A stretch of 64,000 bases of DNA from Aequorivita sp. (GCA_034675805.1 JAUCCX010000001.1:2384741-2448740); one strand, 5' to 3'. Counted from the stretch's first letter, positions 28,383-53,549 are shown. Notes: a model not told the origin generated them from the letters alone. Translations and numbers: made by a program.

Positions 28383-28455
<73 letters not shown>

Positions 28456-29653: not shown

Positions 29654-30133
29654 CTACCTATTGTCCATTTCTCCAATCACGGGAATATTCTCTAAGATTG
29701 TGGTTCTTAATTTACTCAGTATATAACCTTCGATTTGGTAAAATTGGGCAGCCGTTTTTACATCGACCTTTTTCTTTATTTTTCTGGCATAGGTACCGAT
29801 CAGCCTGTCTGTATTGACTTGGAGCTGCATCATTTCGTTGAGGATATCTCCGGTCGCAGCATCATCTAAGGAGTCATACCCATTGGCATAAGAGTTTAAT
29901 AATGCCAAGCGTCTTTTACCTAGATCTTTGCGTTTAATTTCGTATTCATCATAAATTGTCCAAAAGGCATCTTTTTTAACTCCATCAAGTTGAATAAATT
30001 CAGCAACCATGGCTTTCTTTTCCATACCAAATACAGATTGCATTAAATCGATTTCTTCTTTATTGCTTTGAGCAAATACAGTAGAAGATAGCGTAACTAA
30101 GGCTAGAGTAAGTGTAAAAATTAATTTTTTCAT
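29654..30133 (-). CDS. Exported 159-aa helical protein, family unknown (paralog of 42498..42977)
   Basis: It has a signal peptide (..STVFAQ). It aligns end-to-end by eye with the 42498 product (..SVFGMEKKA.VA.FI......FW..YDEYE.KRK.LGK.RL.LLN.Y...AAQF.QIEGY....R..I.E.IP.IGE). Confidence 0.7.
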   Translation of the reverse strand: MKKLIFTLTLALVTLSSTVFAQSNKEEIDLMQSVFGMEKKAMVAEFIQLDGVKKDAFWTIYDEYEIKRKDLGKRRLALLNSYANGYDSLDDAATGDILNEMMQLQVNTDRLIGTYARKIKKKVDVKTAAQFYQIEGYILSKLRTTILENIPVIGEMDNR

Positions 30134-30189
30134 AAGATTATGTTATAAGTATTAGTTAATAGAATAGTGTGATTTAAGGTTAAATTATA

Positions 30190-30438
30190 TTATTGTTTAT
30201 TGTTGTCTTTCGAGATCATTTCTAGAATTTCCTCTTCCAGATTTCGTTGTACCTCTTCATACTCCTCAATCTCCGCAGTATGTTTATTCGGTGTGTTTCT
30301 CATATCCAGAATCATTGAAGAACATAGAATGTGATCTAAACACAGATCTCTGAAATTTTCATCGGTTTGAAAAAGAAAATCAATCTTCTCTTCATAATCC
30401 GGAAATATTCTAACGATAGAAACGATTTTATTTAGCAT
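30190..30438 (-). CDS. Small cytoplasmic protein 'A' (82 aa), unknown family; one of three paralogs
   Basis: The product starts MLNKIVSIVRIFPDYEEKIDFLFQTDENFRDLCLDHILC and has an acidic helical C-terminus. It has no signal peptide. Box A lies 53 nt upstream. Confidence 0.75.
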   Translation of the reverse strand: MLNKIVSIVRIFPDYEEKIDFLFQTDENFRDLCLDHILCSSMILDMRNTPNKHTAEIEEYEEVQRNLEEEILEMISKDNNKQ

Positions 30439-30490
30439 TGAATGTCAGCCGGATTTTAATTATTCATGTAAATGTATATCAGCCTGATCA

Positions 30491-30526
30491 AAATTGTAAG
30501 TGTTACACGGTTACTTAACGGTTAAA
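30491..30526 (-). promoter_or_regulatory. Box A: conserved operator/promoter element
   Basis: The minus strand reads TTTAACCGTTAAGTAACCGTGTAACACTTACAATTT. It contains the direct repeat AACCGT-N5-AACCGT. The gene-proximal edge is 53 nt from the ATG at 30438. Confidence 0.7.
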
Positions 30527-30591
30527 GGGATGTGTATTTATTTGTTTATCAACCCTATAACGAAGCTTGTGAAATTTTAGAAGTTGGGATT

Positions 30592-31734
30592 TTAAAATGC
30601 TTCCGCGAAACTTATATAAGTTCCGTGAATACCACCTCTCCCAAAGCCAAAATCAAGACGTAGGTTTATTTTATTTTTGCTATCCACTTTCACTCTTAAG
30701 CCAGCTCCATAAGATGGCCAAAATCCATCGAAGGACAATTTATCATAAGATGGTGCTACCCTACCTGTTCCTACCCATCCTACTACTCCAAAAATATTCC
30801 ATACTGGCATTCTATATTCAAGCTGGGTATCTACAAGTACTTTATCTCGGAGTGCGCCTTCGTAATATCCTCTCATTTTATTTGCCCCACCAAGTAGCGC
30901 CAAATTATAAAAGGGAGCATCACCACCTAAAGATGTTGTGGTAGCTTGAAGGGCGATAACATGATTCAGCCAAGGATTAAAATATTTTCGCACATCCAAT
31001 TCAAACCTTGTGTATTGATAAGCGCTACCTAATGATTTTTCGTTGAAAATAAATTGCGCGGAAGCAAAAGCTCCATTAAATGGATTATAACGGTTATCAC
31101 GGCTATCAAATTCCAAAGAAAATCCCAAGCCGAAATTAGTTCCTCCGTTTAGTCCTGTTACTTGATCTTTTACTAAGAAACTGGTTGAGTCTGCTTCAAC
31201 TTTAATATAATCTGCAATATCAAGGATGGCACCTACATACATATTTTTATGAACGCGGATCATAGGATTAGTTTTAAAGCGAATTTGCTGTGTTGAAATT
31301 TCCTCTACATCTTCAATAGAAACACCATTCCCTATGCCGAAAATATATTCAGGAACTTCTCTATAGCTGAAAAAACTGATGATTATATATTTGTTTTCCT
31401 TCAGAATTAAATCGTTAGCCACTACAGCATTTATTCTTCCTTTTGAAGAAAAGGAAAGAAGTTCTGATATTTTAGATGGTTTGCTAATTGTATCCTTTTT
31501 TACGGGATGGAAGGCATTGAATTTGGCCAAACCCAAAACATTACCCGCCTCAGAGGAATAACTAACAATGGGAACAGGTATTACTTTGAATAGTTTCTCC
31601 GCTTTTTTATTGAATTTATCAAATTTGGATAGGCTATCCTCAGGCTTTTCGGGAGTGTCGGTTTGGGCTAGAATTCCGTTAATGCAAAGTATCAACAAAA
31701 TACAATAGCCAACAAATATTTTTAGAAACGTCAT
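30592..31734 (-). CDS. Omp85/BamA-family outer-membrane beta-barrel without POTRA domains
   Basis: It has a signal peptide (..INGILAQ). The C-terminal barrel motifs are ..LLGGANKMRGYYEGALRDK.. and the terminal ..GIHGTYISFAEAF. It is a paralog of 48361..49485. Confidence 0.75.
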   Translation of the reverse strand: MTFLKIFVGYCILLILCINGILAQTDTPEKPEDSLSKFDKFNKKAEKLFKVIPVPIVSYSSEAGNVLGLAKFNAFHPVKKDTISKPSKISELLSFSSKGRINAVVANDLILKENKYIIISFFSYREVPEYIFGIGNGVSIEDVEEISTQQIRFKTNPMIRVHKNMYVGAILDIADYIKVEADSTSFLVKDQVTGLNGGTNFGLGFSLEFDSRDNRYNPFNGAFASAQFIFNEKSLGSAYQYTRFELDVRKYFNPWLNHVIALQATTTSLGGDAPFYNLALLGGANKMRGYYEGALRDKVLVDTQLEYRMPVWNIFGVVGWVGTGRVAPSYDKLSFDGFWPSYGAGLRVKVDSKNKINLRLDFGFGRGGIHGTYISFAEAF

Positions 31735-31790: not shown

Positions 31791-32039
31791 TTATGAATAA
31801 TTGTTAACTTTCAATATTATTTGCAAGATTTCCTGTTCCAAATCTTTTTGTATCATTTCATACTCCTCAATTTCCACAGTATTTTCAGCTAGTTCTTTTT
31901 TCATTTTCAGTACCATGGCTGCACATAAAATATGGTCTAAACATAGATCACGGAAATTTTCATCGGATAGGAATAGAAAATCAATCTTCTTCTCAAAACC
32001 CGGAAATATCCGAACAATAGAAACGATTTTATTATGCAT
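31791..32039 (-). CDS. Small cytoplasmic protein 'B' (82 aa), paralog of A and C
   Basis: The product starts MHNKIVSIVRIFPGFEKKIDFLFLSDENFRDLCLDHILC. Box B lies 53 nt upstream. Confidence 0.75.
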   Translation of the reverse strand: MHNKIVSIVRIFPGFEKKIDFLFLSDENFRDLCLDHILCAAMVLKMKKELAENTVEIEEYEMIQKDLEQEILQIILKVNNYS

Positions 32040-32091
32040 AGGAATTCAACCGAATTTTGATTGGTGATGTAAATTTATAACAGACTAATCT

Positions 32092-32127
32092 AAATTGTAA
32101 GTGAAATACGGTTACTTAACGGTTAAA
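32092..32127 (-). promoter_or_regulatory. Box B: conserved operator/promoter element
   Basis: The minus strand reads TTTAACCGTTAAGTAACCGTATTTCACTTACAATTT. It is identical to box D over its first 32 nt. Confidence 0.7.
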
Positions 32128-32235
32128 AGAAGTGTGAACCCACAATAAACACAGCCCTTGGAGTGAGGCCTGTATGATTTTAGAAGATAGGGTTTTAAGG
32201 ATTTTCTATTTCAAATTATTCTTATGAAAGAAGAT

Positions 32236-33897
32236 TTAAGCTATACTAAGTCCAGCTTTTTTCACCCCTTCAATAATTTCTCCAATCAAAGGTTTATCAA
32301 GCAGAAATGAATCTAAGGTAGCATAAAGAGTACTCATAATCTTTGAATACTTTTCATTTAATAGTCTTACATCGTCTTGTGCCTCATCTTCTTTACCGAG
32401 TTGGCCTTTGGCGGCTGCTTTTGTCAAGGGATCGAGAAAGACATCTACGGTTTCTATTTTATTGGCATATATAAGAGCTTTATCGTATTGTTTCTTTTGG
32501 TAATGAACTAAGAAAAAACCAAAATAAAACCACCAGGGACAATGCGGATTCAGATCTAAAGATTGGGTAAGCAATACCTCAGCACGATCAAATTCTCCAG
32601 CGCAGGCCAAATTAAATCCAATACCACCCATTAAAGAAACAGAACCTGGGTTTAAGGACAGTGCATATTCCAATGCCTTGACTGCTTCGTTTTTGTTTTG
32701 CAAATAAACATTCAACCAGCCATATTCTTGATTTGCATGTTGGCACTGCGGATCTATCCTCAATGCTTTTTTGGTGAGTTCAAGAGCTATCTTTAAAGGG
32801 TCATTTACTGTTGGGTAGCCGAGCGAATGGGCCAGTACATATAGCTCTGCCAACATAGCCAGTCCTGTTGGATAATCTGGATCATGGCGTATTGCATTTT
32901 CTAGCGCCTCCCGGGTTTTTAAATAGGTCTCCTTCGAGTAGTTCATATGGAAATAGTAGTTCCAAAAGGTAGCATCAAAAGCTTCCATACTTGAAGCGAG
33001 TGGACGATTGGATCTAGAGTTATCTTGAATAATACATCCGTAGTATCCTCCTAACACTGAAAAAATATTTTCAACGATCTGATCTTGGATAGTTATTAGG
33101 TTTTCAAAATTTAGGGGATGATTGTATGTTTTGGACCAAACTTGCATCCCATTCACCGTTTTTACCATCTCTACATTCACCCGGATATCGCGAGATGAAC
33201 GTTTTACAGATCCGGTTATAATGTAATGCACCCCTAAATCGGAACCTATAATTCGGATATCTTCAGGATTAGTAGCGTACTTACGTGTGGAATGATGAGC
33301 AACCACGTCAATATCCTGAGACCTACTGAAGAGCCGAGTAAGTTCCTCCCCAAATCCGTCTACAAAAAACTGATACTCCCCGCCCTGCCATAAGTTGCGA
33401 AATGGAAGTACCGCCAAGGTGATCTTTGAACGCGAAAACACAACCGAATTATTATCATCGGTCTTTGTTGTAGTCTTTGTGTTTGTATTTTTCTCAGACT
33501 CTTCCTTTACAATTTCCTTTGTCTTATTGATTAAATGCGGTCGAAACATTGGCACATACGTGCCTTTAACAACCTCAATCTTTATGGTGTCTGTAATTCC
33601 TATACCCATGTAATATTCGTTCAAAAGTCTCCTTAGTCTGCCGGCATGAATACGAACAATAGCGTCTATTTGTGGATTAAAGTCATCGGGTTTTCCCAAA
33701 GCACTTACGGCAATGGTATATTCCTTTAAGCCTTCGGTGTTGCCCTCTAGGGTTTCTTCAACAATAAACTTTAGAAAATTTGATAGTACAGAAGAACGGG
33801 AAAACATATCACTAGAAAGAATTCGATCCAGTTCATCTTGGATCTCCTTTTTTGAGAAATCGGGTAATATGCATTTATCTGATGAGTCGAGCGACAT
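32236..33897 (-). CDS. Multidomain regulator 1: conserved N-terminal (putative DNA-binding) domain + TolB_N-like domain + C-terminal TPR
   Basis: The N-terminus is ..ELDRILSSDMFSRSSVLSNFLKFIVEETLEGNTEGLKEYTIAV..DFNPQIDAIVRIHAGRLRRLLNEYY. The middle is ..TLAVLPFRNL...FFVDGFGEELTRLFS...GVHYIITGSVKRS..IRVNV (TolB_N-like). The C-terminus has several TPR-like repeats. I see no TM segment. Confidence 0.7.
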   Translation of the reverse strand: MSLDSSDKCILPDFSKKEIQDELDRILSSDMFSRSSVLSNFLKFIVEETLEGNTEGLKEYTIAVSALGKPDDFNPQIDAIVRIHAGRLRRLLNEYYMGIGITDTIKIEVVKGTYVPMFRPHLINKTKEIVKEESEKNTNTKTTTKTDDNNSVVFSRSKITLAVLPFRNLWQGGEYQFFVDGFGEELTRLFSRSQDIDVVAHHSTRKYATNPEDIRIIGSDLGVHYIITGSVKRSSRDIRVNVEMVKTVNGMQVWSKTYNHPLNFENLITIQDQIVENIFSVLGGYYGCIIQDNSRSNRPLASSMEAFDATFWNYYFHMNYSKETYLKTREALENAIRHDPDYPTGLAMLAELYVLAHSLGYPTVNDPLKIALELTKKALRIDPQCQHANQEYGWLNVYLQNKNEAVKALEYALSLNPGSVSLMGGIGFNLACAGEFDRAEVLLTQSLDLNPHCPWWFYFGFFLVHYQKKQYDKALIYANKIETVDVFLDPLTKAAAKGQLGKEDEAQDDVRLLNEKYSKIMSTLYATLDSFLLDKPLIGEIIEGVKKAGLSIA

Positions 33898-34425
33898 TTA
33901 GAGTTTATAAACTGATTAACAATGTATTGATGTTTAATATTTTATACTAAAAACAAGACATTCACAATAATCAATTCACACCCTACATTTTGATTTTTCC
34001 TGAGCCGTCTCACTTGGGAGAACGAAAATATGAAAAGAGAATAGAATAATCTAGCGTTCAATGAGTAATATTTAACATAAATTATCTATCAAATATAGTT
34101 AAAATTGTTAAAAAAATATTTCTATTAATTTAACTAAGCCATATATCATTGGCTTTGAGAACCGATGATAAACTAGTAGAAGATAAAAATCGGAGTTTGC
34201 CTATTCTGGTTGGATCGTTGAGCAATAGGGTCTATGCAATACTAAGCTTAGGTCTCATCTCACAAAATGGAGGCTACCGTTATTTATTTGTTAGCATAAT
34301 AAAATAGAAAAGGGATGAAAGTTGAAAATTCTGTTTTTATACGTAATTGCAAAAAGAACAAGCAAATGCAATAAATAGATTTAAGGCTTTCTTGTTATAT
34401 ATTTCAAGCTTTTAATAATTGATTA

Positions 34426-35448
34426 TCAATTATCAAAAGGAAATATTTTCAGCCAATCATTCTTCATACTAACTACATTCCAGTTACCTTCTTTTGCTGC
34501 ATTTAGCGAAGCATTATCCTTTTCGGCGTAAGCATATTCACGCTCTTCATCATCGTGGTTAATCAACAATTGAAAATTGGGCAATGGATTTGTTTGACTA
34601 AAAGAGAGTTGACCTATATCTCCCCCGCTTCTAACGTTTCCGCCAACAAATATTGGAATACGACCAATTTGTTGTTGAATAGCAATGGGCTTAAGTTCCT
34701 TATCGCACATAAATAAATTTTCATGGCCTTTCATAACCTTCCATGAACCATCCTCCATCTTACTATAGGTATTTAAAGCAAAACTCCCGATGGTATTCTC
34801 TGGAACTATACCGTAAGCAGACGTACCTATTACTCGCATAAAATCCGTTCCTCCACCGGAACATAAATATGTTTTAAAATCATTCTCACGCAGGTATTGC
34901 AAAAGCTCCAGCATGGGTTGATAAATTGTTTCAGAATATTTTTTATTAAACTTTGAATGCCGAGTATCTTTAAAAAATTCTTCAACGTCCTTATTAAATT
35001 GTTGAATAGGCATCCCAGTGGAGGTTACAACAAATAGTTTCATCAACTCTCTTCCGTGGTTATTCATTAAATCATCTACTAAGAAACTTTTATCGCCGTC
35101 GAGAATTGCCTTATACGGCAATTGATCTTTCCATTCGGGATGTTCATGAGCCATTTTTTTTATTTGATAAACAACGAATTCCAACTGAACTACAGGTTGC
35201 TCGCACCACAAAGTACCATCATTATCAAAAGTAGCTATGCGCTCTTCTGGGTTTACATAATTGGCTCCACCTTTTTGGGTAACTTGATTCACAAAATCAA
35301 TAATATCCGTTTTATTTGGGCCGTCTTTCCAGGATGGTAAAGGATTCAATGAAACAGCTTTGTCGTTAGTTTCTTGTTTTGGATTTGGCTGGTTACAGCC
35401 TGAAATCACTACCAATAAAATACTAGTTAAGAGTAAAAAATTTTTCAT
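34426..35448 (-). CDS. HAD-superfamily hydrolase-like lipoprotein (putative periplasmic phosphatase)
   Basis: It has the lipobox VVISGCNQ and the HAD motif I, ATFDNDGTLW. Later GGN..SGGDIGQL could be motif IV-like. Confidence 0.55.
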   Translation of the reverse strand: MKNFLLLTSILLVVISGCNQPNPKQETNDKAVSLNPLPSWKDGPNKTDIIDFVNQVTQKGGANYVNPEERIATFDNDGTLWCEQPVVQLEFVVYQIKKMAHEHPEWKDQLPYKAILDGDKSFLVDDLMNNHGRELMKLFVVTSTGMPIQQFNKDVEEFFKDTRHSKFNKKYSETIYQPMLELLQYLRENDFKTYLCSGGGTDFMRVIGTSAYGIVPENTIGSFALNTYSKMEDGSWKVMKGHENLFMCDKELKPIAIQQQIGRIPIFVGGNVRSGGDIGQLSFSQTNPLPNFQLLINHDDEEREYAYAEKDNASLNAAKEGNWNVVSMKNDWLKIFPFDN

Positions 35449-35501: not shown

Positions 35502-35744
35502 TCAATTCTCGTTCTTCATAATTCTTTGGAGAATTTCTTCCTCCAAATTTCTTTGTAAGTCTTCATATTCCATAAGTTTCGTATCATTTTTAAGTGCATC
35601 ATTTTTCATTTCCAGTGCCATAGATGCACATAAAATGTAATCTAAACATAGATCCCTAAAATTTTCATCAGTTTGAAATAGAAAACCAATCTTCTCCTCA
35701 AAATCTGGAAATATTTGAATAATAGAAATTATTTTAGTATTCAT
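35502..35744 (-). CDS. Small cytoplasmic protein 'C' (80 aa), paralog of A and B
   Basis: The product starts MNTKIISIIQIFPDFEEKIGFLFQTDENFRDLCLDYILC. I chose the start at 35744, not the track's 35765. That choice aligns with A and B and reproduces the 53-nt box-to-ATG spacing. Confidence 0.7.
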   Translation of the reverse strand: MNTKIISIIQIFPDFEEKIGFLFQTDENFRDLCLDYILCASMALEMKNDALKNDTKLMEYEDLQRNLEEEILQRIMKNEN

Positions 35745-35796
35745 AGGAAGTAATCCAAATTTCATTTAATAGTATAAATGTAAATCAGACTAATCC

Positions 35797-35832
35797 AAAT
35801 TGTAAGTATTACACGGTTACTTAACGGTTAAA
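35797..35832 (-). promoter_or_regulatory. Box C: conserved operator/promoter element
   Basis: The minus strand reads TTTAACCGTTAAGTAACCGTGTAATACTTACAATTT. Confidence 0.7.
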
Positions 35833-35850: not shown

Positions 35851-35876
35851 AAAAACAGCCCTTATAATCAGGGCTA
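35851..35876 (-). terminator. Candidate terminator after regulator 2
   Basis: On the minus strand, AGCCCT-(7 nt)-AGGGCT is followed by GTTTTT. It separates regulator 2 from box C. Confidence 0.4.
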
Positions 35877-35940
35877 TATAGTTTTTGATAAGAGAATCCA
35901 AAGTTTGTTTATTCTATTTTCAAGCGCTAAAAAAATTGAT

Positions 35941-37599
35941 TTAGGAAATAGTAACTCCCGCTTTTTTTGCGCCTTCAATAATTTCGGAAATTAAAGACTT
36001 ATCTAGAATAAAAGTGCCAAGGGAAGCTTCAAGATTACCCATAATTTCTGAAAAATCTTCGTTCAACCGTCGTACATTCGCTTGAGCTTCCGATACCAAT
36101 CCCAATTTCCCAAAAGCTGCAGCTTTAAATAAAGGATCCAGGAAGACATCTTCGGAAGCATTAAACTTTTGGGCATACATCAAAGCTTTTTTATACTTTC
36201 CACTCTGATAATAAATAAAGAATAAAGCCTCGTAATACCAATAAGGACAATATGGATTTAAATCCAATGACCTGTGCAGCAAAACTTGCGCACGCTTATA
36301 CTCCCCCAAACATGCAAAGCCAAAACCCAGTTGACCATCCACCGAAGCCGAATTATGGCCCAAGGTTTTACTATACTCAAATGCTTTAATTGATTCCTCC
36401 TTATCTCCCAAGTAGATGTTTGCCCAGCCATATATTATGTGGGCGTATTGTGAGAATGGAGCTAGTTTTATCGCTTTTTTGATTAACTTAATGGCTTCAT
36501 TAATGGGATCTGCTATATTTGGATATCCAAGCGAGTGTGTAAATAAATAGGTATCTCCCAAGATAACCAGGCACATTGCGTTATTCGGATCACTTTGAAG
36601 TACCTTTTCCAGAGCCTTTCTACTTTTTACACAGGCCTCCATAGAATGTGTTTTTTGTGCGTAATAATTCCACAAAATAGCATCAAAAGATTGGATATCC
36701 TGCTTCATTTCAGACTCCACTAACTTCATTGTATCTCTAACTAAAAATCCATATTGGCCACTTAAAATTGAAAAAACATCATGGTCAATTTGATCCTGAA
36801 TATCAATTATTTCATCTTTTTCTAGATCGTGCGTATAATTCTTAGACCAAATTTGAATACTATTCACGGTTTCAATCAATACAACATTTACTCTAATATC
36901 TTTATTGGAGCGTTTTACGGAGCCCGTTATAACGTAATGAACTCCTAAGTCCGCACCAATTACACGGATATCTTCATTAATAGTGGCGTACTTTAAAGAA
37001 GAAAAATGCGCAACCACGGCAATATCCTCTTCAGTACTAAAGATCCTTGTAAGTTCTTCCCCAAATCCATCAACAAAAAATTGATATTCTCCATTGGGGC
37101 ATAAATTTCGAAATGGAAGGACCGCTAAGGTTAGTTTTGATCGGGAATATACCGTTGGCTTATCCTCAGAACCTGGTGCTTCCTTGGTTTCAAGTTTTAT
37201 CTTAACGGGAGTTTTCACTTCTAATTGCTGTGTAGATTGTGTGCGAAATGCTGGGACATACGTACCCTTAACCACTTCAATCTTTATAGAATTATTGAGC
37301 CCAGCTCCCATATAATACTCGTTTAACAACCTTCTTAATCTACCAGCATGAATACGGACAATAGCATCTATTTGCGGGTTAAAATCATCAGATTTTCCCA
37401 AGGCATTTACGGCAATTATATATTCCTTAAGTCCTTCAGTTTTACCTTCTACAGTTTCTTCTACAATGAACTTCAGAAAATTAGTTAAAACGGAAGATCT
37501 GGAAAAAATATCACTAGCTAAGATTCGATCCAATTCATCTAATACCTCTTTTTTGGAGAATTCGGGAAAAACACGTTTTGATGATGGGTCAGGCTGCAT
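35941..37599 (-). CDS. Multidomain regulator 2 (paralog of regulator 1)
   Basis: The domain order matches regulator 1. A 99-residue N-terminal stretch differs from regulator 1 at 14 positions by my count. The TPR region is much more diverged. Confidence 0.7.
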   Translation of the reverse strand: MQPDPSSKRVFPEFSKKEVLDELDRILASDIFSRSSVLTNFLKFIVEETVEGKTEGLKEYIIAVNALGKSDDFNPQIDAIVRIHAGRLRRLLNEYYMGAGLNNSIKIEVVKGTYVPAFRTQSTQQLEVKTPVKIKLETKEAPGSEDKPTVYSRSKLTLAVLPFRNLCPNGEYQFFVDGFGEELTRIFSTEEDIAVVAHFSSLKYATINEDIRVIGADLGVHYVITGSVKRSNKDIRVNVVLIETVNSIQIWSKNYTHDLEKDEIIDIQDQIDHDVFSILSGQYGFLVRDTMKLVESEMKQDIQSFDAILWNYYAQKTHSMEACVKSRKALEKVLQSDPNNAMCLVILGDTYLFTHSLGYPNIADPINEAIKLIKKAIKLAPFSQYAHIIYGWANIYLGDKEESIKAFEYSKTLGHNSASVDGQLGFGFACLGEYKRAQVLLHRSLDLNPYCPYWYYEALFFIYYQSGKYKKALMYAQKFNASEDVFLDPLFKAAAFGKLGLVSEAQANVRRLNEDFSEIMGNLEASLGTFILDKSLISEIIEGAKKAGVTIS

Positions 37600-37869
37600 T
37601 GAATGTTGATATGTAAATTAGTATTGTACTGATATATAGGATGGTAAACTAAAGATAAGACTTACAGAATAACCAATTCACATTCTCCAATTTTATTTTC
37701 CAAGAAGTGTCTCTATTAGAAAGATAGAAGTTTGTTAAGGCAATCAGCCAATGCTAAAGTTCAATATGTTTTGTTAAAATTCTATCTCTCAAATATAGTT
37801 AAAATTATCAAAGGTATTTTTTGTTTTTTAGTCGGAAAAGGCACTGTTTACAAAGGTTTTACAATTTGG

Positions 37870-37901
37870 TTTAACCGTTAAGTAACCGTATTTCACTTAC
37901 A
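37870..37901 (+). promoter_or_regulatory. Box D: conserved operator/promoter element heading the + strand gene array
   Basis: The + strand reads TTTAACCGTTAAGTAACCGTATTTCACTTACA. It lies in the divergent region between regulator 2 (start 37599) and the DUF1254/DUF1214 gene (start 38112). Confidence 0.65.
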
Positions 37902-38111
37902 TGGTGAATAGTATGTCCTTATTTTTGATTGTGATTATTTGTGTTCTGACGGGATATTCAATTAATAAATTGAATAAATATTTATCAGAAAGCTCATTTA
38001 TAGAATCGAATACTAATAAACAAAATCACTAAAATTTATGTACCACAAATTACTATATACAGGAATCGTGAGCGTGTATTTCGCTCTTAAATCAACTAAA
38101 AACTATTAATT

Positions 38112-44950: not shown

Positions 44951-45043
44951 GTTCATTTCTAATGATTTTTTAAGGAGCATATTATATCATACAACAGGTT
45001 TATTTAATTATTTTAATAAGGCAATCTAATCTCTATTATGCTT

Positions 45044-45769
45044 ATGAAAAAATTAGTCTTTACTGTAATTCTTCTCTCATCCATAATCAACATTAATGGT
45101 CAGGAACTTAATGAGGAAACTATAAACAAGAACGAAATAGATCTGGTGATTTCAGATTTACTTGATGGAGCCTTCCAGCTTAAATACGAGCGTGCTCTAG
45201 GAAAGCATTTCTCCGTTAATCTGGGTTTGGGTTATAAGGGGGAAGATGGATTTATTAATCGGTCTGGTATCGATACAGAGAAGATAAAAACCAATGGTGT
45301 TTCCTATTCGGGATTTAAAATCATTCCAGAAGTACGTTATTATTTAAGAAATGCCGATTATGCTGCAATGAAAGGTTTTTATTTTGGGGCGTATCTAAAA
45401 TATTCCAATTTTCAATCAAAACTTGATGGCAAGTATATTAGTGACGCTGGGAAGTATTTTGAGTTAGAATTTGATGCAGATATTCAAGTAACCTCTATTG
45501 GAATAATGGTTGGATATAAATTACCGCTCTCGGAAAGGTTTTCATTGGATTTTTTAATTGCAGGCCCCGGTGCCGGGTTTTATGATTTTTCAATTGAAAA
45601 TAAAAAAGATTTACCGGACGAATTTTATGAAGATTTTAATGATGCTCTAAATAAATATCCCGTATTCGATGTCTTGGATGGAGATTTTAGGTTTAGCGCT
45701 GCCCGTAGAAGATCCAACTTCAATCTATTGTCTTTAAGATATGGCATTTCACTTGGATATTCATTCTAA
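45044..45769 (+). CDS. Outer-membrane beta-barrel protein, family unknown
   Basis: It has a signal peptide (MKKLVFTVILLSSIININGQ) and the C-terminus ..LRYGISLGYSF, ending in an aromatic residue. Confidence 0.55.
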   Translation: MKKLVFTVILLSSIININGQELNEETINKNEIDLVISDLLDGAFQLKYERALGKHFSVNLGLGYKGEDGFINRSGIDTEKIKTNGVSYSGFKIIPEVRYYLRNADYAAMKGFYFGAYLKYSNFQSKLDGKYISDAGKYFELEFDADIQVTSIGIMVGYKLPLSERFSLDFLIAGPGAGFYDFSIENKKDLPDEFYEDFNDALNKYPVFDVLDGDFRFSAARRRSNFNLLSLRYGISLGYSF

Positions 45770-48360: not shown

Positions 48361-49485
48361 ATAATAATAAAAAAGTTAATTCTGATATTATTAATTGCCC
48401 TTCCCTCTCAAGGTTTTCCCCAGGACGGGAAGAATGTTATTGACTCTATTGTAGTACGCAGTAAAGATATCACAACAGTTAAAAAACTGACTTTTAATGG
48501 ATATCCTTATGCGTTTTACACTCCTGAAACACAAGCTGCAATTGGTGCTGGGGGTATCTTTCTATTTTACACAAAAAATAAAATAGATGGGTTAAGACCT
48601 TCAAAAGTTGGTTTTGGAGCTTTTTATACAACCAATAAGCAATACAAATTTTCGGTGAATCCAAGTATTTATTTTAACTCCAATAAGCTTGTCGTTCAAA
48701 TGCCTGCATCCTTTAGCTATACTTTAGATAAATTTTGGGGAATAGGTAATGAAACTGTAGAAACTGGAACGGAAGATTATTTTAGAGAAGATTTTGACGT
48801 TCAATTGGAAGTACAAGTGCCTCCATTGTTATTTTTTGCAGATCGTTCGAGCTTTATCTTGGACTACCAACACACTAGCATAGTTGACGTGCAGGATAAC
48901 GAGTATCTAATAGATGAAACAGTTACTGGGTATCAAGGTGGGGATCTTTTTGGCGTTGGTTTTGGTTTAGTCTGGGACAGGCGCGATAACTTGTTTTATC
49001 CTACTTCTGGACATTATCAATTTATAAAATTTATAGTTTATACTCAACCCAGTGATTATACATATACCACTTTTGAACTAGATGTACGATATTATAAAAA
49101 GTTATTTAAAAACTCTGTTTTAGCGACAAATCTCTATTTAAAAAATGTAAGCGGCAATGCACCTTTTTACGAATTACCTGCTTTAGGTGGACCTCAACGA
49201 ATGAGAGGCTATTTTCAAGGGCGATACCGAGACAACAACTATTTCACCATACAAACTGAGTACCGTCAGTATTTCTGGAAACGATTTGGTTTTGTGGCAT
49301 TTGGAGGTTTTGGGGATGTAAGTGATGAAATTACAAGTGTAAATCTAAAAGAATTGAAATATAGTTTTGGAGGTGGACTTCGTTATCTTTTCAACAAAAA
49401 GGAACACGTTAATCTAAGAATGGATATTGGTATTGGAGCCGATGGGAATACCGGAATTTATTTTGGTATTGAGGAAGCATTTTAA
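48361..49485 (+). CDS. Omp85/BamA-family barrel without POTRA (paralog of 30592..31734); start codon non-canonical or unresolved
   Basis: The track ORF (48655, GTG) lacks the N-terminus. The same frame is open from 48361 and encodes IIIKKLILILLIALPSQGFPQD.. (signal-peptide-like), followed by a region homologous to the 30592 product. No ATG, GTG or TTG is present; only ATA, ATT and CTG are available. The C-terminus is ..GIYFGIEEAF. Confidence 0.6.
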   Translation: MIIKKLILILLIALPSQGFPQDGKNVIDSIVVRSKDITTVKKLTFNGYPYAFYTPETQAAIGAGGIFLFYTKNKIDGLRPSKVGFGAFYTTNKQYKFSVNPSIYFNSNKLVVQMPASFSYTLDKFWGIGNETVETGTEDYFREDFDVQLEVQVPPLLFFADRSSFILDYQHTSIVDVQDNEYLIDETVTGYQGGDLFGVGFGLVWDRRDNLFYPTSGHYQFIKFIVYTQPSDYTYTTFELDVRYYKKLFKNSVLATNLYLKNVSGNAPFYELPALGGPQRMRGYFQGRYRDNNYFTIQTEYRQYFWKRFGFVAFGGFGDVSDEITSVNLKELKYSFGGGLRYLFNKKEHVNLRMDIGIGADGNTGIYFGIEEAF

Positions 49486-49587: not shown

Positions 49588-50280
49588 ATGAAAAACAAAT
49601 ATTATTTTATCCTTTTAGCATTGGCTTTTACGTTTTTACAAAGTTGCTCAAGTAGCAAAGTATTGGATTCTTGGAAAGCCGAGCCTTCTGTAGTTGAACT
49701 TTTTAAGAAGAAAAAGGTATTAGTAATTGCTCGTGCCGCGAATGATGATGCCCGTTATGCTTTTGAAAAAGAAATAGCTGATGCATTACGCCAGAGAGGA
49801 ATTAAAGCAATAGAGAGTTACAATTACGCACCAAATATTCATCCTCACAGAGAAATGTCTGAAGAACGTTTGGCATTTATAAAAACTTTAATGAAGAGCG
49901 AAGGGCTTAATGCTGTTGTTTTAACAGTAATCAAAGACAAAAAAGAAACGGTTAGAGTAACGTCTAATGGGATGTATATGGGAGGATTATATTCGTCTTA
50001 CTACCCTGCTTATTATGGAGGCTTTTATAATTATTACAGTTACCCTTATGCTTATGGCTCTTATTATAATTCATTTGGAGGCTATATCCCCACTTCAACT
50101 TCAACGGAAGTTGAAACTACTTATGTGTTAGAAACCGTAGCCTATAATCTTGATGAGAATGATAATAACCAATTAGTAGCAGTAGTTACTTCAAGTTTGG
50201 ATGACCCTAATGACGCGATAAAAACTGCCAAAGAATATGTTGATTTAATGATTAAAACTTTAGAAGAATCAAAAAAATAA
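49588..50280 (+). CDS. DUF4136-like lipoprotein, paralog 3 of 3
   Basis: It has the lipobox TFLQSCSSS and the Tyr-rich segment GGLYSSYYPAYYGGFYNYYSYPYAYGSYYNSFGGY. Confidence 0.6.
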   Translation: MKNKYYFILLALAFTFLQSCSSSKVLDSWKAEPSVVELFKKKKVLVIARAANDDARYAFEKEIADALRQRGIKAIESYNYAPNIHPHREMSEERLAFIKTLMKSEGLNAVVLTVIKDKKETVRVTSNGMYMGGLYSSYYPAYYGGFYNYYSYPYAYGSYYNSFGGYIPTSTSTEVETTYVLETVAYNLDENDNNQLVAVVTSSLDDPNDAIKTAKEYVDLMIKTLEESKK

Positions 50281-50337
50281 AAACACGATAAATCACACCG
50301 AGAATTTAGTGGGTGATATCGTACAATCTGATTGCCG

Positions 50338-51246
50338 ATGTATTATTTTACGCTGTTTATATATGTCCTATCACTGTTTAGTTCCAAGGCTTACGCACAG
50401 GATATTGAGCCTAGACGGTGGACGCCACTACCTTTAAAGACTAATATTATAGGGGTGGGTTATGGGTACACCAATGGAAAAATATTTTTTGATCCAGTTA
50501 TCGACGTTGAAGATGCTAGCGTTGAGGGGAGCGCTTTTGTAGTACAATATGTTCGTCCATTTAAGCTTGGGAAAAAACTTGCGCGAGTAGATGTGCAGCT
50601 TCCATATACCATAGCACGTTGGGAAGGATTGTTAGGGGGTGCTCCAGCATCAGTAAAGCGGAGTGGATTTGCGGATCCGCGATTGCGACTTTCCGTCAAT
50701 TTTATTGGACCTTCCGCCATGGAAGCTAAGGAACTGCGGGAATATATTATGGCGAATCCTGTACATACTGTGGTAGGTGCTTCCCTAGCAGTAACATTTC
50801 CTTTCGGGCAGTATTATGATGATAAGTTGCTGAATTTGGGGCAGAATCGTTTTGTATTTCGACCACAAGTTGGTTTTGTACATACTTGGAGAAGCTGGTC
50901 TTACGAGCTAAGCGGATCGGTATTTCTATATTCAAACAACAATAATTTTTTTAATGGTAAAACGAGGAGACAAAACCCTGTTTTTGAAGCGCAAACACAT
51001 CTTATTAAAAGATTTAAACCAGGTATTTGGGGCTCTCTAAGTCTTGGAACGGGTTTGGCAGGACAGTCAATAGTAAACAATCTACCTAACAGCGATGAGC
51101 AAGAGAATATTATGGCCGGACTTTCATTTGGTTTTGCAATAACGAAAAGTCAAGCAGTAAAGATTTTTTATATTCGGTCTCAAACGCTATCAGATATTGG
51201 TGGTGACACAAACTCTTATGGGGTAGTGTGGTCTGGGATCTTTTAA
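50338..51246 (+). CDS. Outer-membrane transporter-like barrel (MetA-pathway/'Phenol_MetA_deg'-like)
   Basis: It has a signal peptide (..SSKAYAQD). ..PRRWTPLPLKTNIIGVGYGYTNG...GFADPRLRLSVNF.. is typical of that family as I recall it. I chose the ATG at 50338 over the TTG at 50332. Confidence 0.5.
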   Translation: MYYFTLFIYVLSLFSSKAYAQDIEPRRWTPLPLKTNIIGVGYGYTNGKIFFDPVIDVEDASVEGSAFVVQYVRPFKLGKKLARVDVQLPYTIARWEGLLGGAPASVKRSGFADPRLRLSVNFIGPSAMEAKELREYIMANPVHTVVGASLAVTFPFGQYYDDKLLNLGQNRFVFRPQVGFVHTWRSWSYELSGSVFLYSNNNNFFNGKTRRQNPVFEAQTHLIKRFKPGIWGSLSLGTGLAGQSIVNNLPNSDEQENIMAGLSFGFAITKSQAVKIFYIRSQTLSDIGGDTNSYGVVWSGIF

Positions 51247-51311
51247 GCATTTGTAGTATTATAAATTAATCAAATGCATTTAATATATTGTTTCATTTAT
51301 ATAAAGATTAT

Positions 51312-51926
51312 ATGGAAAGCTTTATGTCCTCTATAAAAAAAACCTTCATCGTTGGATTGTCCTTTATAATCCCTCTTGTGTTGTTGATTTATTTACTTCT
51401 AAAAGTAATAGAAGCATTTAGAAAAATAGTTGCTCCTATTGCCGATAAGATTGAAATTTCCTTATGGGGAGGGGAAACCACCTCCAGAATTATTGCAATT
51501 GTTGTATTACTGATACTTTCTTTTGTAATCGGGTTGTTGGCAAGAATGAAAAAGGAACACAGTATAAAAGATTGGATTGAAGATAATATTCTCTCAATGA
51601 TTCCAGGTTATTTGCTGTTAAAAGGAATGACTGAGGAAGCAGTAGGTTTCGATAGTAAGCATTTAAAAGAAGTGGTATTGATTAATATGGGGAGCACTTG
51701 GAGAATTGGTTTTATAATGGAGCGAATAGATGAAGATCTTAATACTGTATTTATTCCCAGTGCGCCAAATCCCCTTGGCGGTATAGTAGTATTCGCGAAA
51801 TGGGATGTTTTAAAGAAATTAGATATGGACGAAGTGAGTGTAATGAAAATTCATAGAAAATTAGGGATTAATTCAAAGAAGCTTTTAAATGGTGAGTTAT
51901 ATAAGGGTATATTCGATAAAGAGTGA
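51312..51926 (+). CDS. DUF502-family inner-membrane protein
   Basis: It has two TM helices followed by ..FIPSAPNPLGGIVVFAKWDVLKKLDMDEVSVMKIHRKLG. The start is ambiguous (TTG 51288, ATG 51312 or ATG 51324). Confidence 0.65.
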   Translation: MESFMSSIKKTFIVGLSFIIPLVLLIYLLLKVIEAFRKIVAPIADKIEISLWGGETTSRIIAIVVLLILSFVIGLLARMKKEHSIKDWIEDNILSMIPGYLLLKGMTEEAVGFDSKHLKEVVLINMGSTWRIGFIMERIDEDLNTVFIPSAPNPLGGIVVFAKWDVLKKLDMDEVSVMKIHRKLGINSKKLLNGELYKGIFDKE

Positions 51927-52013
51927 TATTGGATATATTTAAATTCAAAATAAAATTTTAAACTACAATCAGCCAAATAGAATTACACAACAATCAATTC
52001 CGAAGCATAGAGA

Positions 52014-53054
52014 ATGTTTCGTTTAATAGCTAGTATGATAAAGGTGAACACATACCTACTAATTATTGTCTTATTAATAAGCGGTGCGTTGTCAGCTCAA
52101 AACGATACTATTCAACTAAAGAATAATGATGTTTTGGTTGGGGAGGTGAAATCATTGGCAAAAGGAATTTTAATTTTAAAGACCTCCTACAGTGATAAGG
52201 ATTTTAGAATTGAATTTAATGAGGTGAAAGGGCTTATCATTGAGTCGAAATGCCTTATACTTCTTACCGATGGAAGGCGGCGTTTTGGAAATATCGGAAC
52301 TGATAAAGAAGGAATAGTAGTAATCACTTTAGAAGACAAAACCATCGAAACTTTTAAAGTGGAAGAAGTAATTGCCCTAAAAGAGGTAGATGATAAATTC
52401 TGGAGTCGTATTACTGGCTCTGTTGACCTTGGATTTAACTTTACTAAAGCAAATAATACTTCTCAATTCAGTGTAGATGGAACTCTTGATTATATTGATA
52501 GGAGATGGATGTTTGAAGGAGATATAAGTTTACAAAGTTCTAAACAGGATAAAGCGGCCAAGACAAAAAGGACTGATGCTAATTTAGATTTAATTCGAAT
52601 ACTGCCGAGAAGATGGTATTTATTAGGAGGAGTTTCTTTTCTATCAAATACAGAACAAGCTTTGGAGGGAAGGGTGAATCCCAGTGTAGGTTTAGGAAAG
52701 TTCCTTCTTACCAGTAATAAACTGCTTTTAGGGTCAAGTCTTGGTCTTACTTATAATATTGAGAATTATGTGGATACTTCCTTAAACAAAACTTCAACTG
52801 AAGCAGTTCTTGCCTCTAATTTTAATATGTTCGACTTTGAGAATATTGATCTTACGTCCAGCCTTGATTTATTTACAAGCTTATCCGAAAAGGGTAGATT
52901 CCGAACGGATTTTGATATTACTCTTAAATACGATTTGCCTTTAGATTTTTATATTAAATTGGGGTTCACCTTAAATTATGATAACCAACCCGCCATATCA
53001 GGAAACGATTATGACTACGTTTTCAGTAGTGGTTTTGGTTGGAAACTTGATTAA
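52014..53054 (+). CDS. DUF481-family outer-membrane protein with an extra N-terminal domain
   Basis: It has a signal peptide (..GALSAQ). The C-terminal roughly 230 aa (..GSVDLGFNFTKANNTSQFSVDGTLDY..RWMFEGD..) are DUF481-like. Confidence 0.55.
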   Translation: MFRLIASMIKVNTYLLIIVLLISGALSAQNDTIQLKNNDVLVGEVKSLAKGILILKTSYSDKDFRIEFNEVKGLIIESKCLILLTDGRRRFGNIGTDKEGIVVITLEDKTIETFKVEEVIALKEVDDKFWSRITGSVDLGFNFTKANNTSQFSVDGTLDYIDRRWMFEGDISLQSSKQDKAAKTKRTDANLDLIRILPRRWYLLGGVSFLSNTEQALEGRVNPSVGLGKFLLTSNKLLLGSSLGLTYNIENYVDTSLNKTSTEAVLASNFNMFDFENIDLTSSLDLFTSLSEKGRFRTDFDITLKYDLPLDFYIKLGFTLNYDNQPAISGNDYDYVFSSGFGWKLD

Positions 53055-53072
53055 CCTAAATTAAAGGATATT

Positions 53073-53549
53073 ATGAAAACAGTATTTAAATTTATTATTG
53101 GTATTCCAATCATAACCACATTAATAATTGCGATTATTTTTTTAGGATTGGGAGTATATGAAACTGTACTTGGAATTACTGGTATTTTAAAAGGTCAAAT
53201 TCATTCGGAAAATACCCCTGGGTTACTGCTATTTCAAGCTTTGGATCTCTTTTTAATAGGTTTTCTTTTTTTAATTTTTTCGCTTGGATTTTTTCAACTT
53301 TTTTACCCAAAACCCTCGAGACTTATGAGCGCTATAGACGATATTGCTCCAGAATGGTTAAAGGTGGAAAACTTTACCCAACTCAAGTTAATTCTTTGGG
53401 ATACAGTTCTAACAACATTGGTTGTTCTATTTATTGGTGACGCGTTCTTAGCTGCCGGTCAATATGATTGGAATTTAACGATTATTCCTATAGCGATACT
53501 TCTTATTTCGTTTGGTAAATTTTTGATTAAAAAAGCTAAAAAGGATTAA
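53073..53549 (+). CDS. YqhA/UPF0114-like small inner-membrane protein
   Basis: It is 158 aa with 3-4 TM helices. The pattern ..LGVYETVLGI.. resembles YqhA, but the call is weak. Confidence 0.45.
   Translation: MKTVFKFIIGIPIITTLIIAIIFLGLGVYETVLGITGILKGQIHSENTPGLLLFQALDLFLIGFLFLIFSLGFFQLFYPKPSRLMSAIDDIAPEWLKVENFTQLKLILWDTVLTTLVVLFIGDAFLAAGQYDWNLTIIPIAILLISFGKFLIKKAKKD

Follow-up and report, generated by a model that had tools for sequence, protein, structure and literature searches.

HilA of Salmonella pathogenicity island 1 (SPI-1) is a cytoplasmic one-component activator of about 553 amino acids (aa) with an N-terminal OmpR/ToxR-type domain and C-terminal tetratricopeptide repeats (TPR), and its binding site is a pair of direct repeats immediately 5′ of the −35 region. 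Here, we describe a locus of Aequorivita sp. (GCA_034675805.1) that resembles this and several other activator systems in part. The locus is an island of 26 genes at positions 29654 to 53549 of a 64-kb window of the source genome. By “the window” we mean this whole stretch, and every absence reported for it is limited to these 64 kb. The island encodes two regulators, three small proteins of about 80 aa, and many exported or membrane proteins (the cargo), and it carries four copies of a promoter box. We hold with moderate confidence that these parts form an undescribed regulator-plus-partner activator circuit, which would drive an inducible envelope and exoenzyme regulon. Statements on operons and promoters are based on sequence throughout.

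The island regulators share the size, the cytoplasmic setting, and the TPR region of HilA, and the OmpR/ToxR-type domain is predicted for them. The repeat geometry of HilA is the same as that proposed here. However, HilA has no dedicated small partner, its cargo is type III secretion as opposed to envelope proteins and a sulfatase, and the N-terminal domain of the island regulators is not matched by Trans_reg_C. The NCBIfam model for HilA/EilA (NF009037) gave a weak match over residues 156 to 487, which at 32.6 bits (E = 2.8e-8) was far below its 589-bit cutoff.

CadC and ToxR offer a second comparison, with an N-terminal winged-helix-type domain (predicted here), a linker, and then a sensor module of alpha/beta and helical-repeat subdomains. 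The island regulators differ from them in having no transmembrane (TM) helix, so the sensor module would be cytoplasmic. ToxR and TcpP work with small dedicated partners, ToxS and TcpH; the candidate partner here is a soluble, acidic, helical protein and not a membrane protein. AfsR, a Streptomyces antibiotic regulatory protein (SARP) with TPR, combines a winged helix with TPR, binds direct repeats over the −35 region, and turns on the adjacent gene for the 63-aa AfsS, which carries the signal onward. The island likewise has a putative activator, an adjacent small-protein gene, and direct repeats near −35 that we predict to be bound. It lacks the BTAD (PF03704) and NB-ARC domains, the small protein is unrelated to AfsS, and the phylum and the cargo differ. 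In the TraR-TraM pair, the activator turns on its own antagonist, a small, acidic, helical protein that works by binding to it. Although there is no homology to the island, this pair is the analogy that we favor for a possible feedback.

An activator-controlled regulon is thus known as a kind, but in the libraries and papers that we searched we found no description of this subfamily of regulators, of its partner family, of the box, or of what the regulon contains. Pfam, NCBIfam, PADLOC, PDB sequences, and Rfam were checked for a described pathway or a name for the small protein. None of them named the small protein or placed the island, in keeping with an earlier sequence-only reading, which had been unable to map it to a described system.

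Promoter box and its geometry

The 20-mer TTTAACCGTTAAGTAACCGT occurs in four exact copies in the window, at 30507 to 30526, 32108 to 32127, and 35813 to 35832 on the minus strand and at 37870 to 37889 on the plus strand. Its chance expectation was 0, and it was absent from 100 shuffles. These counts bear out the four-copy box that the sequence-only reading had placed at the head of both arms. Similarity among the four boxes extends to 32 nt. No further copy was found in the window at three or fewer mismatches to TTTAACCGTTAAGTAACCGT or at six mismatches to the 32-nt consensus. The left arm and the divergent box are arranged as follows:

29654 to 30133, minus strand: p159a, a 159-aa periplasmic helical protein with a signal-like N terminus; last gene of box unit A
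30190 to 30438, minus strand: small protein A, 82 aa, acidic and helical, isoelectric point (pI) 4.45
30469 to 30526, minus strand: box A unit, with the box at 30526 to 30495, an 18-nt spacer, and the −7 element TACATTTA at 30476 to 30469
30592 to 31734, minus strand: Omp85-family barrel a, 380 aa, without a detected POTRA; PF01103, 54.6 bits (cutoff 24)
31791 to 32039, minus strand: small protein B, 82 aa; predicted as three helices
32070 to 32127, minus strand: box B unit, with the box at 32127 to 32096, an 18-nt spacer, and the −7 element TAAATTTA at 32077 to 32070
32153 to 32170, minus strand: terminator-like hairpin between the regulator 1 stop and box B
32236 to 33897, minus strand: regulator 1, 553 aa; N domain 16 to 120, linker, alpha/beta domain 159 to 282, TPR 288 to 547
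34083 to 34121, minus strand: conserved block upstream of regulator 1 that holds TATATTTG, 82% identical to 37783 to 37821; candidate promoter of regulator 1
34426 to 35448, minus strand: lipoprotein of 340 aa resembling HAD, with lipobox ISGC; PF12710, 31.7 bits (cutoff 27); lies second in box unit C
35502 to 35744, minus strand: small protein C, 80 aa with 35744 as the ATG; this start is favored by the family alignment and by the distance to the −7 element
35775 to 35832, minus strand: box C unit, with the box at 35832 to 35801, an 18-nt spacer, and the −7 element TACATTTA at 35782 to 35775
35855 to 35877, minus strand: terminator-like hairpin between the regulator 2 stop and box C
35941 to 37599, minus strand: regulator 2, 552 aa, paralogue of regulator 1; TPR matches in Pfam
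37783 to 37821, minus strand: conserved block upstream of regulator 2, about 50 to 90 nt from the divergent box; candidate promoter of regulator 2
37870 to 37927, plus strand: box R unit, with the box at 37870 to 37901, an 18-nt spacer, and the −7 element TATTTTTG at 37920 to 37927; heads the right arm

We surveyed all copies of the box in the related loci that we fetched (genome and metagenome contigs, designated by L-numbers such as L003). The survey comprised 48 distinct sequences from several orders, with the consensus T-T-T-[A/T]-A-C-S-G-T-T-A-A-G-T-A-A-C-S-G-T, in which “S” falls at positions 7 and 18. The box consists of two TAACSGT half-sites 11 bp apart (TAACSGT-N4-TAACSGT). The half-sites are followed by five semi-variable bases and then by ACTTA at positions 26 to 30, which is invariant in all 48 copies. 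A variable 18-nt spacer separates ACTTA from TAnnTTT(G/A); the TA lies at exactly +18 in 47 of the 48 copies, and TAnnTT is present in 45. In Bacteroidetes, sigma-A promoters have TAnnTTTG as their −7 element. Therefore, ACTTA sits at −33 and the half-sites at about −60 to −43.

The distance from the −7 element to the ATG of the small gene is 30 nt in all three small-gene units of the window. Given this distance in units A and B and the family alignment, small protein C most likely begins at 35744 and not at 35765. The box always points toward the downstream gene, and its flanks are not conserved. By its sequence and spacing, the box is a promoter module.

An alternative is that the box is a chance repeat or a mobile element of the miniature inverted-repeat transposable element (MITE) type with no regulatory role. 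It is after all a 32-nt repeated element, and the island has a tRNA gene at a distance of 1.2 kb. We consider this explanation barely credible, as no copies are expected by chance, the distance to the −7 element is fixed, the orientation is constant, and the flanks are unconserved. Moreover, the box is kept across orders before the same gene families, and no terminal repeats or transposase were seen. A promoter of the extracytoplasmic function (ECF) type was also rejected. The AAC-to-CGT spacing is 11 nt, as opposed to AAC-N16/17-CGT in ECF promoters, and a normal −7 TAnnTTTG is present. In a Pfam search for an ECF sigma/anti-sigma pair, no island product contained a Sigma70_r2 or Sigma70_r4 domain.

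The regulators share a 39-nt block of their own, which holds TATATTTG and lies about 190 nt upstream of their start codons. The box near regulator 2 points away from that gene, and terminator-like hairpins stand between each regulator stop and the next box. From the promoter-like block and the hairpins, we take the regulators to be separate transcription units, with the box driving the small genes and the cargo. The island had been called self-regulated; this is right only in part, as the small genes, and not the regulators, lie under the box.

Regulators

Regulators 1 and 2 are 57% identical. Neither contains a TM segment (no 19-residue window with a mean above 1.8), and from their sequences both are cytoplasmic. 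Pfam matched TPR in both. We modeled the regulator with AlphaFold2 (AF2) from an alignment of 27 sequences, with a predicted local distance difference test (pLDDT) of 80. The N domain was predicted to have helices at 36 to 50, 59 to 67, and 75 to 97 and a beta-hairpin at 105 to 120 (strands 105 to 110 and 113 to 120). A linker at 119 to 156 was predicted to be disordered and is followed by the alpha/beta domain at 159 to 282 and the TPR solenoid.

Besides generic TPR proteins, Foldseek returned the periplasmic sensor domain of CadC and FlgT. The CadC matches (3LY7, 3LY8, 3LY9, and 3LYA) had E values of 1e-6 to 2e-5 over 308 to 342 aligned columns, with modest target TM-scores of 0.38 to 0.42. 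Both subdomains of a CadC-type sensor, alpha/beta and helical repeat, were found in the regulator by this search.

We aligned the N domain with hhalign to the DNA-binding domains of seven Escherichia coli proteins (PhoB, OmpR, CadC, CreB, ArcA, CpxR, and KdpE). Residues 65 to 115 aligned with the recognition helix and wing. The match was weak (P = 0.0014, 17% probability), although the register was as expected. It pairs DAIVRIHAGRLRRLL...IEVVKGTYV with DRTVDVHIRRLRKAL...QTVRGTGYR, and the N-terminal beta-sheet of that family was not predicted. Three arginines in the putative recognition helix (Arg82, Arg87, and Arg89) are invariant. We believe that the N domain is likely a divergent winged helix of the OmpR/ToxR type. 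Winged helices of the OmpR/PhoB type bind tandem direct repeats with a periodicity of about 10 to 11 bp beside or over the −35 region, and the geometry of the box would suit such binding. Public annotations of the regulator family read “TolB-like protein,” “adenylate cyclase,” or “tetratricopeptide repeat protein,” with no function attached. A shortened relative is found at L036 (556 to 1449, minus strand), where a 297-aa homologue has the N domain and the alpha/beta domain without TPR and adjoins a small gene and a homologue of p344, a secreted protein of the right arm.

Small proteins as putative partners

Small proteins A, B, and C are 59 to 66% identical to one another, and an exhaustive profile search placed them in a family of 290 representative clusters, nearly all of 70 to 120 aa. 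A word-index search had returned eight clusters only. The family signature is FP-x5-I-x2-L-x3-D-x2-F-x2-LC-x-D-Y-x2-C followed by EY-x2-L-x3-LE-x-E, and a C-x-[DE]-x3-C motif is present in 124 of 150 representatives. The AF2 model has three helices, of which the last spans ~54 residues, with a pLDDT of 89. No family was found for the small protein in Pfam, NCBIfam, or PADLOC, and no fold match was found in the PDB.

The pI is 4.4 to 4.9 for the window proteins, and the family median is 5.0. Proteins this acidic are unlikely to bind DNA and more likely to bind another protein, in a manner that from the sequence may possibly be redox or metal sensitive. At L033 (237 to 2532), a 527-aa regulator homologue (28% identity) is followed after 4 nt by a fusion of a Response_reg receiver to the small domain (P0221). 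This fusion shows that the partner domain is the signal entry point in at least one lineage, and it suggests a general route for signals into winged-helix/TPR activators. Separately, a 180-aa protein at L061 (773 to 1315; P0214) consists of two tandem small-protein domains, with neighbors unrelated to the island families.

Related loci

A scan with the small-protein profile, using one genome per species, gave 19 loci. They came from Flavobacteriaceae (Gelidibacter, Xanthomarina, Aquaticitalea, and Bizionia), Cryomorphaceae, Algoriphagus, and Lentimicrobiaceae/Bacteroidales and, more distantly, from Ensifer and Pararhizobium. Wherever a genome locus extended far enough upstream, a regulator homologue was found no more than 2 kb from the small gene. 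The pairing holds at regulator identities of 24 to 36% (L033, L034, L036, and L026 to L028 of Ensifer/Pararhizobium). The same box and promoter geometry precede the same families in Flavobacteriaceae, Cryomorphaceae, Algoriphagus, and Lentimicrobiaceae/Bacteroidales, and a second box is often found on the opposite strand upstream of the regulator. The sequence-only reading had treated regulators, small proteins, box, and exported cargo as one ensemble and had called for a check of co-occurrence and gene order; in that check, the four were linked across the Bacteroidota relatives.

The downstream cargo occurs in varying mixes of p159, one to five DUF1254/DUF1214 paralogues, the 268-aa barrel, OMP_b-brl_2, glycine-zipper protein, p257, DUF481, DUF502, UPF0114, lipoprotein 224, p344, and the PagL-like barrel. 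A p159 homologue directly follows the small gene in L013, L014, L017, L021, L024, L042, L052, L055, and L057. Scanning metagenome contigs for the box alone gave 25 occurrences. The next gene was a small gene in 12 of them, a sulfatase in 7, and DUF1254/DUF1214, a PagL-like barrel, or a run ending in Omp85 in 1 each. The remaining three were at contig ends or had no assignable downstream gene, and every interpretable box thus precedes the same families. Omp85-like, HAD-like, and DUF3575 genes also lie inside the metagenome box runs. Omp85-like genes are found within the box units of L040, L048, L053, and L056, and a homologue of the HAD-like lipoprotein (38%) ends a box-headed run in L056.

Several loci depart from this layout. 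In L006 to L010, which derive from one metagenomic organism (e.g., L006, 2116 to 2736), all that is left of the regulator upstream of the box and small gene is 206 aa from its C terminus, and the small gene has no cargo behind it, as if this copy were decaying. In two Aquaticitalea metagenome-assembled genomes (MAGs; L020, 10245 to 12244, and L022), the small gene precedes genes for a DcaP-like porin and for a carbonic anhydrase of the eukaryotic (alpha) type. L014 has a Band 7 protein and an NhaB antiporter after the box unit. Intergenic regions of L026 to L028 (e.g., L026, 8499 to 9976) carry repeated GTAAC motifs, among them a TAACGTTA palindrome close to where the regulator gene begins. 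Between the regulator and small genes lies a short open reading frame for a secreted product. With no consensus box there, the GTAAC and TAACGTTA motifs were not taken as evidence.

We view the window as an enlarged, partly duplicated version of a widespread Bacteroidota regulon, with two regulators, three partners, and four box units.

Proposed circuit

The motif, its geometry and conservation, the gene linkage, and the domain architecture were directly established. From these we infer that the regulator binds DNA, that it activates and does not repress, and that it contacts its partner, along with a sign for the feedback, an inducing signal, and a physiological role. In our model, a cytoplasmic regulator of ~550 aa, with an N-terminal winged-helix-like domain and a CadC-sensor-like alpha/beta plus TPR module, would bind the pair of TAACSGT half-sites, with their 11-bp spacing, between about −60 and −43. 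The half-sites lie directly upstream of the invariant, nonconsensus ACTTA at −33 of an otherwise ordinary Bacteroidetes sigma-A promoter, and binding there would activate transcription. Three of the four box promoters in the window would first transcribe the ~80-aa acidic helical protein with its C-x-D-x3-C motif. This protein would be the dedicated partner of the regulator and most likely binds it, either feeding back on it or carrying a signal in. Since the small protein is acidic, helical, and induced by the system that it would limit, our guess is an anti-activator; a co-activator or signal adaptor would be equally compatible. The exported cargo (DUF1254/DUF1214 lipoproteins, small and Omp85-like barrels, glycine-zipper protein, lipoproteins, and in most relatives the sulfatase) would make up an inducible envelope and exoenzyme program.

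Several observations weigh against this model. PF00486 (Trans_reg_C) had no match in the full regulators, in the isolated 120-aa N domain, or in the Ensifer homologues. A profile of 15 N domains searched against PDB sequences found no winged-helix protein, and the profile-profile match stands at the 17% given above. The N domain is not basic overall (pI 5.0 to 6.6). The invariant ACTTA could be read by another factor. Half-site covariation, first hinted at by a variant in L003, was dropped when positions 7 and 18 were found to vary independently over the 48 boxes, which leaves the half-sites without covariation support. Lastly, the consensus box is missing in L025 and in the Ensifer loci.

Some of these observations would suit a different arrangement, in which the large TPR protein does not bind DNA and is a cytoplasmic sensor or scaffold. 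The promoter factor would then be the small protein acting on RNA polymerase, as Wbl- or Crl-type proteins do, or an unlinked regulator that reads TAACSGT/ACTTA. The N domain fails every sequence-level test for a known DNA-binding family apart from the weak hhalign match, and the invariant ACTTA at −33 could reflect an altered contact with sigma or a cofactor. The small protein also has a conserved Cys pair, a common feature of small regulators that bind RNA polymerase. On the other side, the adjacency of regulator, box, and small gene is nearly universal. A winged helix would fit the predicted topology of three helices and a hairpin, the invariant helix rich in arginine, and the alignment in the register of PhoB, and the small protein is strongly acidic with no structural relative. 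We therefore regard this arrangement as unlikely and retain the model in which the regulator itself binds the half-sites.

If the circuit is correct, DUF1254/DUF1214, a large conserved sulfatase, and about ten orphan envelope families gain a physiological context. Our analysis supplies a precise promoter motif, with 48 distinct copies that share one geometry, as well as a candidate pair of regulators. The regulon in question belongs to marine and cold-habitat Bacteroidota, and nearly all of its proteins have no assigned function.

Right arm

Box R directly heads only the first gene of the right arm, which is separated from the box by a leader of about 180 nt that ends at the ATG at 38112. The leader contains no small open reading frame or remnant of one and no Rfam family. 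A riboswitch or leader RNA was rejected, since Rfam was blank in this leader and in the other gaps and its sole match was a tRNA outside the island. The features of the arm are as follows:

38112 to 39710, plus strand: DUF1254+DUF1214 lipoprotein, 532 aa (Pfam)
39725 to 39756, plus strand: hairpin with a 12-bp stem directly 3′ of the DUF1254/DUF1214 gene; no T-tract on the plus strand
39787 to 40521, plus strand: Sel1-repeat lipoprotein, 244 aa; PF08238; not seen in related box units
40745 to 41518, plus strand: 257-aa barrel, weakly PagL-like; PF09411 at E = 0.005, below cutoff
41597 to 42403, plus strand: 268-aa predicted barrel; no Pfam family
42498 to 42977, plus strand: p159b, a 159-aa periplasmic protein; homologues in L003, L020, and L051
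43011 to 43520, plus strand: glycine-zipper protein, 169 aa; PF13488; homologues in L003, L013, L014, L016, L020, L040, L051, and L056
43542 to 44315, plus strand: p257, a 257-aa secreted protein of a family without a name; 73 to 81% conserved across orders
44312 to 44950, plus strand: lipoprotein of 212 aa; lipobox ITGC; ATGA overlap with the preceding gene at 44312 to 44315
45038 to 45769, plus strand: DUF3575 barrel, 243 aa; PF12099; 75% homologue in the matching position of L051
45850 to 46524, plus strand: lipoprotein of 224 aa; lipobox LSGC; homologues in L017 and L051
46555 to 47268, plus strand: OMP_b-brl_2 barrel, 237 aa; PF13568; homologues in L003, L013, L014, L016, L040, L048, and L051
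47284 to 48318, plus strand: p344, a 344-aa secreted protein of a family without a name; homologues in L017 and L051, and at 31% beside the distant small/regulator pair in L036
48361 to 49485, plus strand: Omp85-family barrel b; PF01103 at 56.5 bits against a cutoff of 24; frame open from 48361, first canonical start at 48655
49588 to 50280, plus strand: lipoprotein of 230 aa, 45% identical to lipoprotein 224
50332 to 51246, plus strand: MetA-like barrel, 304 aa; PF13557, 50.2 bits (cutoff 22); no counterpart seen in related box units
51288 to 51926, plus strand: DUF502 inner-membrane protein; PF04367; homologues in L014 and L017
52014 to 53054, plus strand: DUF481 barrel; PF04338; homologues in L003 and L014
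53073 to 53549, plus strand: UPF0114 (YqhA-like) inner-membrane protein; PF03350; homologues in L014 and L017

DUF1254/DUF1214 is the steadiest cargo family across the related loci. The window protein belongs to a cluster at 90% identity that also includes Aequorivita aurantiaca. The closest solved structure to the window protein is VPA0735 (PDB 2P3Y/3VB9), which has the same two domains, matches near full length (E = 6e-74), and was deposited as uncharacterized. The hairpin behind this first gene could attenuate or stabilize the transcript of the first cistron. Homologues of the PagL-like barrel occur in box units of L020, L040, and L056 and also in the Ensifer loci. Those of the 268-aa barrel occur in box units of L016, L017, L019, L020, L021, L025, and L051, with 50% identity in the distant L034. 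Sequence and profile searches of the PDB were blank for p159 and p257; p159a had no match in Pfam or NCBIfam either, nor did p257 in Pfam.

Two earlier labels needed correction. The three lipoproteins had been called DUF4136-like, but Pfam was blank for them at E ≤ 10, and BLASTP against the true DUF4136 protein of L020 was blank as well. Of the two barrels called MetA-like, the 304-aa protein keeps this label through PF13557, while the 268-aa barrel had no Pfam match at E ≤ 10.

The signal peptide of Omp85 barrel b is present only when the protein is read from 48361, and the N terminus extended in this way aligns with a 385-aa homologue in L053. No in-frame ATG, GTG, or TTG lies between 48361 and 48654; the frame opens with ATA ATA ATA AAA AAG TTA ATT CTG. 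This could reflect the use of a rare start codon, the loss of the start codon by mutation, or an error in sequencing.

The length of the run raises the question of how far the regulon extends. A single box stands before 18 genes, a strong hairpin follows gene 1, and a 223-nt gap (40522 to 40744) follows gene 2. Therefore, the distal genes are only putatively co-transcribed, which also counts against our model. In addition, nothing that corresponds to the Sel1 protein, the MetA-like barrel, or lipoprotein 212 was seen in related box units. One could accordingly limit the regulon to four short box-headed units, with the genes after DUF1254/DUF1214 or Sel1 being separately transcribed outer membrane genes that are merely clustered, so that there would be no 24-kb system. 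The lack of a further box in the window, even at six mismatches, agrees with this. However, L051 (a Bacteroidales MAG) has the order from DUF1254/DUF1214 to p344 behind a box as in the right arm, at 47 to 81% identity. Eight genes of that run (268-aa barrel, p159, glycine-zipper, p257, DUF3575, lipoprotein 224, OMP_b-brl_2, and p344) are 70 to 81% identical in the same order. Homologues of DUF502, UPF0114, DUF481, Omp85, and HAD occur in box units elsewhere, and the gaps within the arm are mostly below 100 nt. We thus find the short-unit explanation improbable and favor a regulon that includes the longer run.

Sulfatase and possible role of the cargo

After the small protein, the commonest box cargo in relatives is a sulfatase. 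A secreted protein of ~792 aa, it lies behind the second, opposite-strand box in nine loci (L011, L012, L013, L014, L020, L022, L023, L024, and L040). It matches PF00884 at E = 2.7e-58, with the C-x-P-x-R formylglycine motif as CSPTR (L023, 5572 to 7950, minus strand, and homologues). AtsA, the arylsulfatase of Pseudomonas aeruginosa (PDB 1HDH), aligns with it over residues 62 to 589 (E = 4e-52) and shares the C-x-P-x-R motif, but the relatives' enzyme has an extra C-terminal region of ~200 aa. CysB and SftR control AtsA; the regulator here is not of the LysR type. The sulfatase is 86 to 90% identical across Flavobacteriaceae, Algoriphagus, Cryomorphaceae, and a Bacteroidales MAG, and the adjacent regulators are 58 to 78% identical to those of the window. 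This pattern suggests horizontal transfer or unusually strong constraint on the sequence. Among the distant loci, L034 combines a 24%-identical regulator, a small gene, an OprB porin, a glycine-zipper protein, the 268-aa-barrel homologue, and a sulfatase, and in L035 and L063 the small gene is followed by a sulfatase.

The island had been described as containing no enzyme. This is true of the window, where no sulfatase homologue was found, but box runs of relatives hold the sulfatase, the alpha-carbonic anhydrase, and a HAD-like protein like that of the window. Such cargo shifts the likely role toward an inducible exoenzyme/uptake or stress regulon and away from a pure swap of the outer membrane proteome, which had been proposed earlier and may still apply.

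A more specific role would be the scavenging of nutrient esters under sulfur or phosphorus limitation, built on the AtsA-like sulfatase and uptake channels, with the sulfatase of this strain located elsewhere in the genome or lost. The enzyme comes first behind the divergent box in nine genome loci and seven metagenome matches, and it follows distant small genes in L034, L035, and L063. Its closest solved relative is this Pseudomonas aeruginosa arylsulfatase, an enzyme that is induced by sulfate starvation and also acts on phosphate esters. The HAD-like lipoprotein behind box C and the many small channels are consistent with this role as well. Against it, the 64-kb window contains no sulfatase, and no transporters of sulfate or phosphate esters were found. 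We found no functional lead in the literature on DUF1254/DUF1214, VPA0735, TolB-like/TPR regulators, or sulfur limitation in flavobacteria. The exported island proteins contain 0.14% Cys and 1.89% Met, which is not clearly below the other exported proteins of the window. We consider this role possible but doubtful and keep to the broader exoenzyme/uptake or stress reading. Sulfur sparing as such was rejected: compared to all other window proteins (0.65% Cys and 2.12% Met), the island values are lower, but exported proteins are Cys-poor anyway, which makes the signal unconvincing.

We also propose, more tentatively than the circuit itself, that the regulator and its ~80-aa Cys-pair partner are a widespread unnamed signal-transduction module. 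It would span Bacteroidota, Alphaproteobacteria, and probably further phyla (~290 clusters at 50% identity) and would ancestrally switch on an AtsA-like sulfatase, DUF1254/DUF1214 lipoproteins, and dedicated outer membrane channels. If this is true, solving the module would give the first physiological context for DUF1254, DUF1214, DUF481, DUF502, UPF0114, and the 159-, 257-, and 344-aa families.

Island inventory and surroundings

All 26 open reading frames were found where the sequence-only reading had placed them, with the gene spacing and the ATGA overlap that it described, and its two sets of paralogues (regulators and ~80-aa proteins) stood as well. Pfam supported the labels Omp85 (twice), HAD, DUF1254+DUF1214, Sel1, glycine-zipper, DUF3575, OMP_b-brl_2, one MetA-like barrel, DUF502, DUF481, and UPF0114. 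In a hydropathy and lipobox check, only the regulators (two) and small proteins (three) lacked both TM helices and a hydrophobic segment at the N terminus, again as had been claimed. Among further paralogues, Omp85 barrels a and b are 39% identical, p159a and p159b are 51% identical, and lipoprotein 212 is 26 to 27% identical to lipoproteins 224 and 230.

Both Omp85 barrels exceed the PF01103 cutoff, with the Pfam matches at 30592 to 31734 (minus strand) and 48655 to 49485 (plus strand). They had been described as lacking POTRA, and Pfam matched no POTRA in either, the extended form of the second included. As for BamA/TamA insertases, the BamA equivalog scored 33.5 bits against 297, and the NCBIfam Omp85_fam model was below its cutoff for barrel a. 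A SusC/SusD polysaccharide utilization locus would be expected to pair a TonB-dependent SusC-like receptor with a SusD-like lipoprotein, but Pfam found no TonB-dependent receptor, plug, or SusD match in the 26 products. A defense system was rejected, with no PADLOC match for the regulator, the small protein, p159, p257, p344, DUF1254/DUF1214, HAD, or Omp85 barrel a.

The genes on either side are unrelated to the island: to the left, a tRNA gene and one resembling HutD, and to the right, genes for a glycosyltransferase and a GDP-mannose dehydratase. About 1.2 kb, including the HutD-like gene, separate the tRNA gene (28383 to 28455, plus strand; 67 bits with Rfam RF00005) from the left end of the island, and no integrase or other mobile-element gene was seen near it. 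A perfect 19-bp inverted repeat with a 10-nt loop (29576 to 29623) lies ~30 nt past the stop of the last left-arm gene and is probably the terminator of that unit. Elsewhere in the window, judged by N-terminal sequence alone, are four co-directional gldK/L/M/N-like genes (17694 to 22327) and a GroEL-like gene (4560 to 6194).

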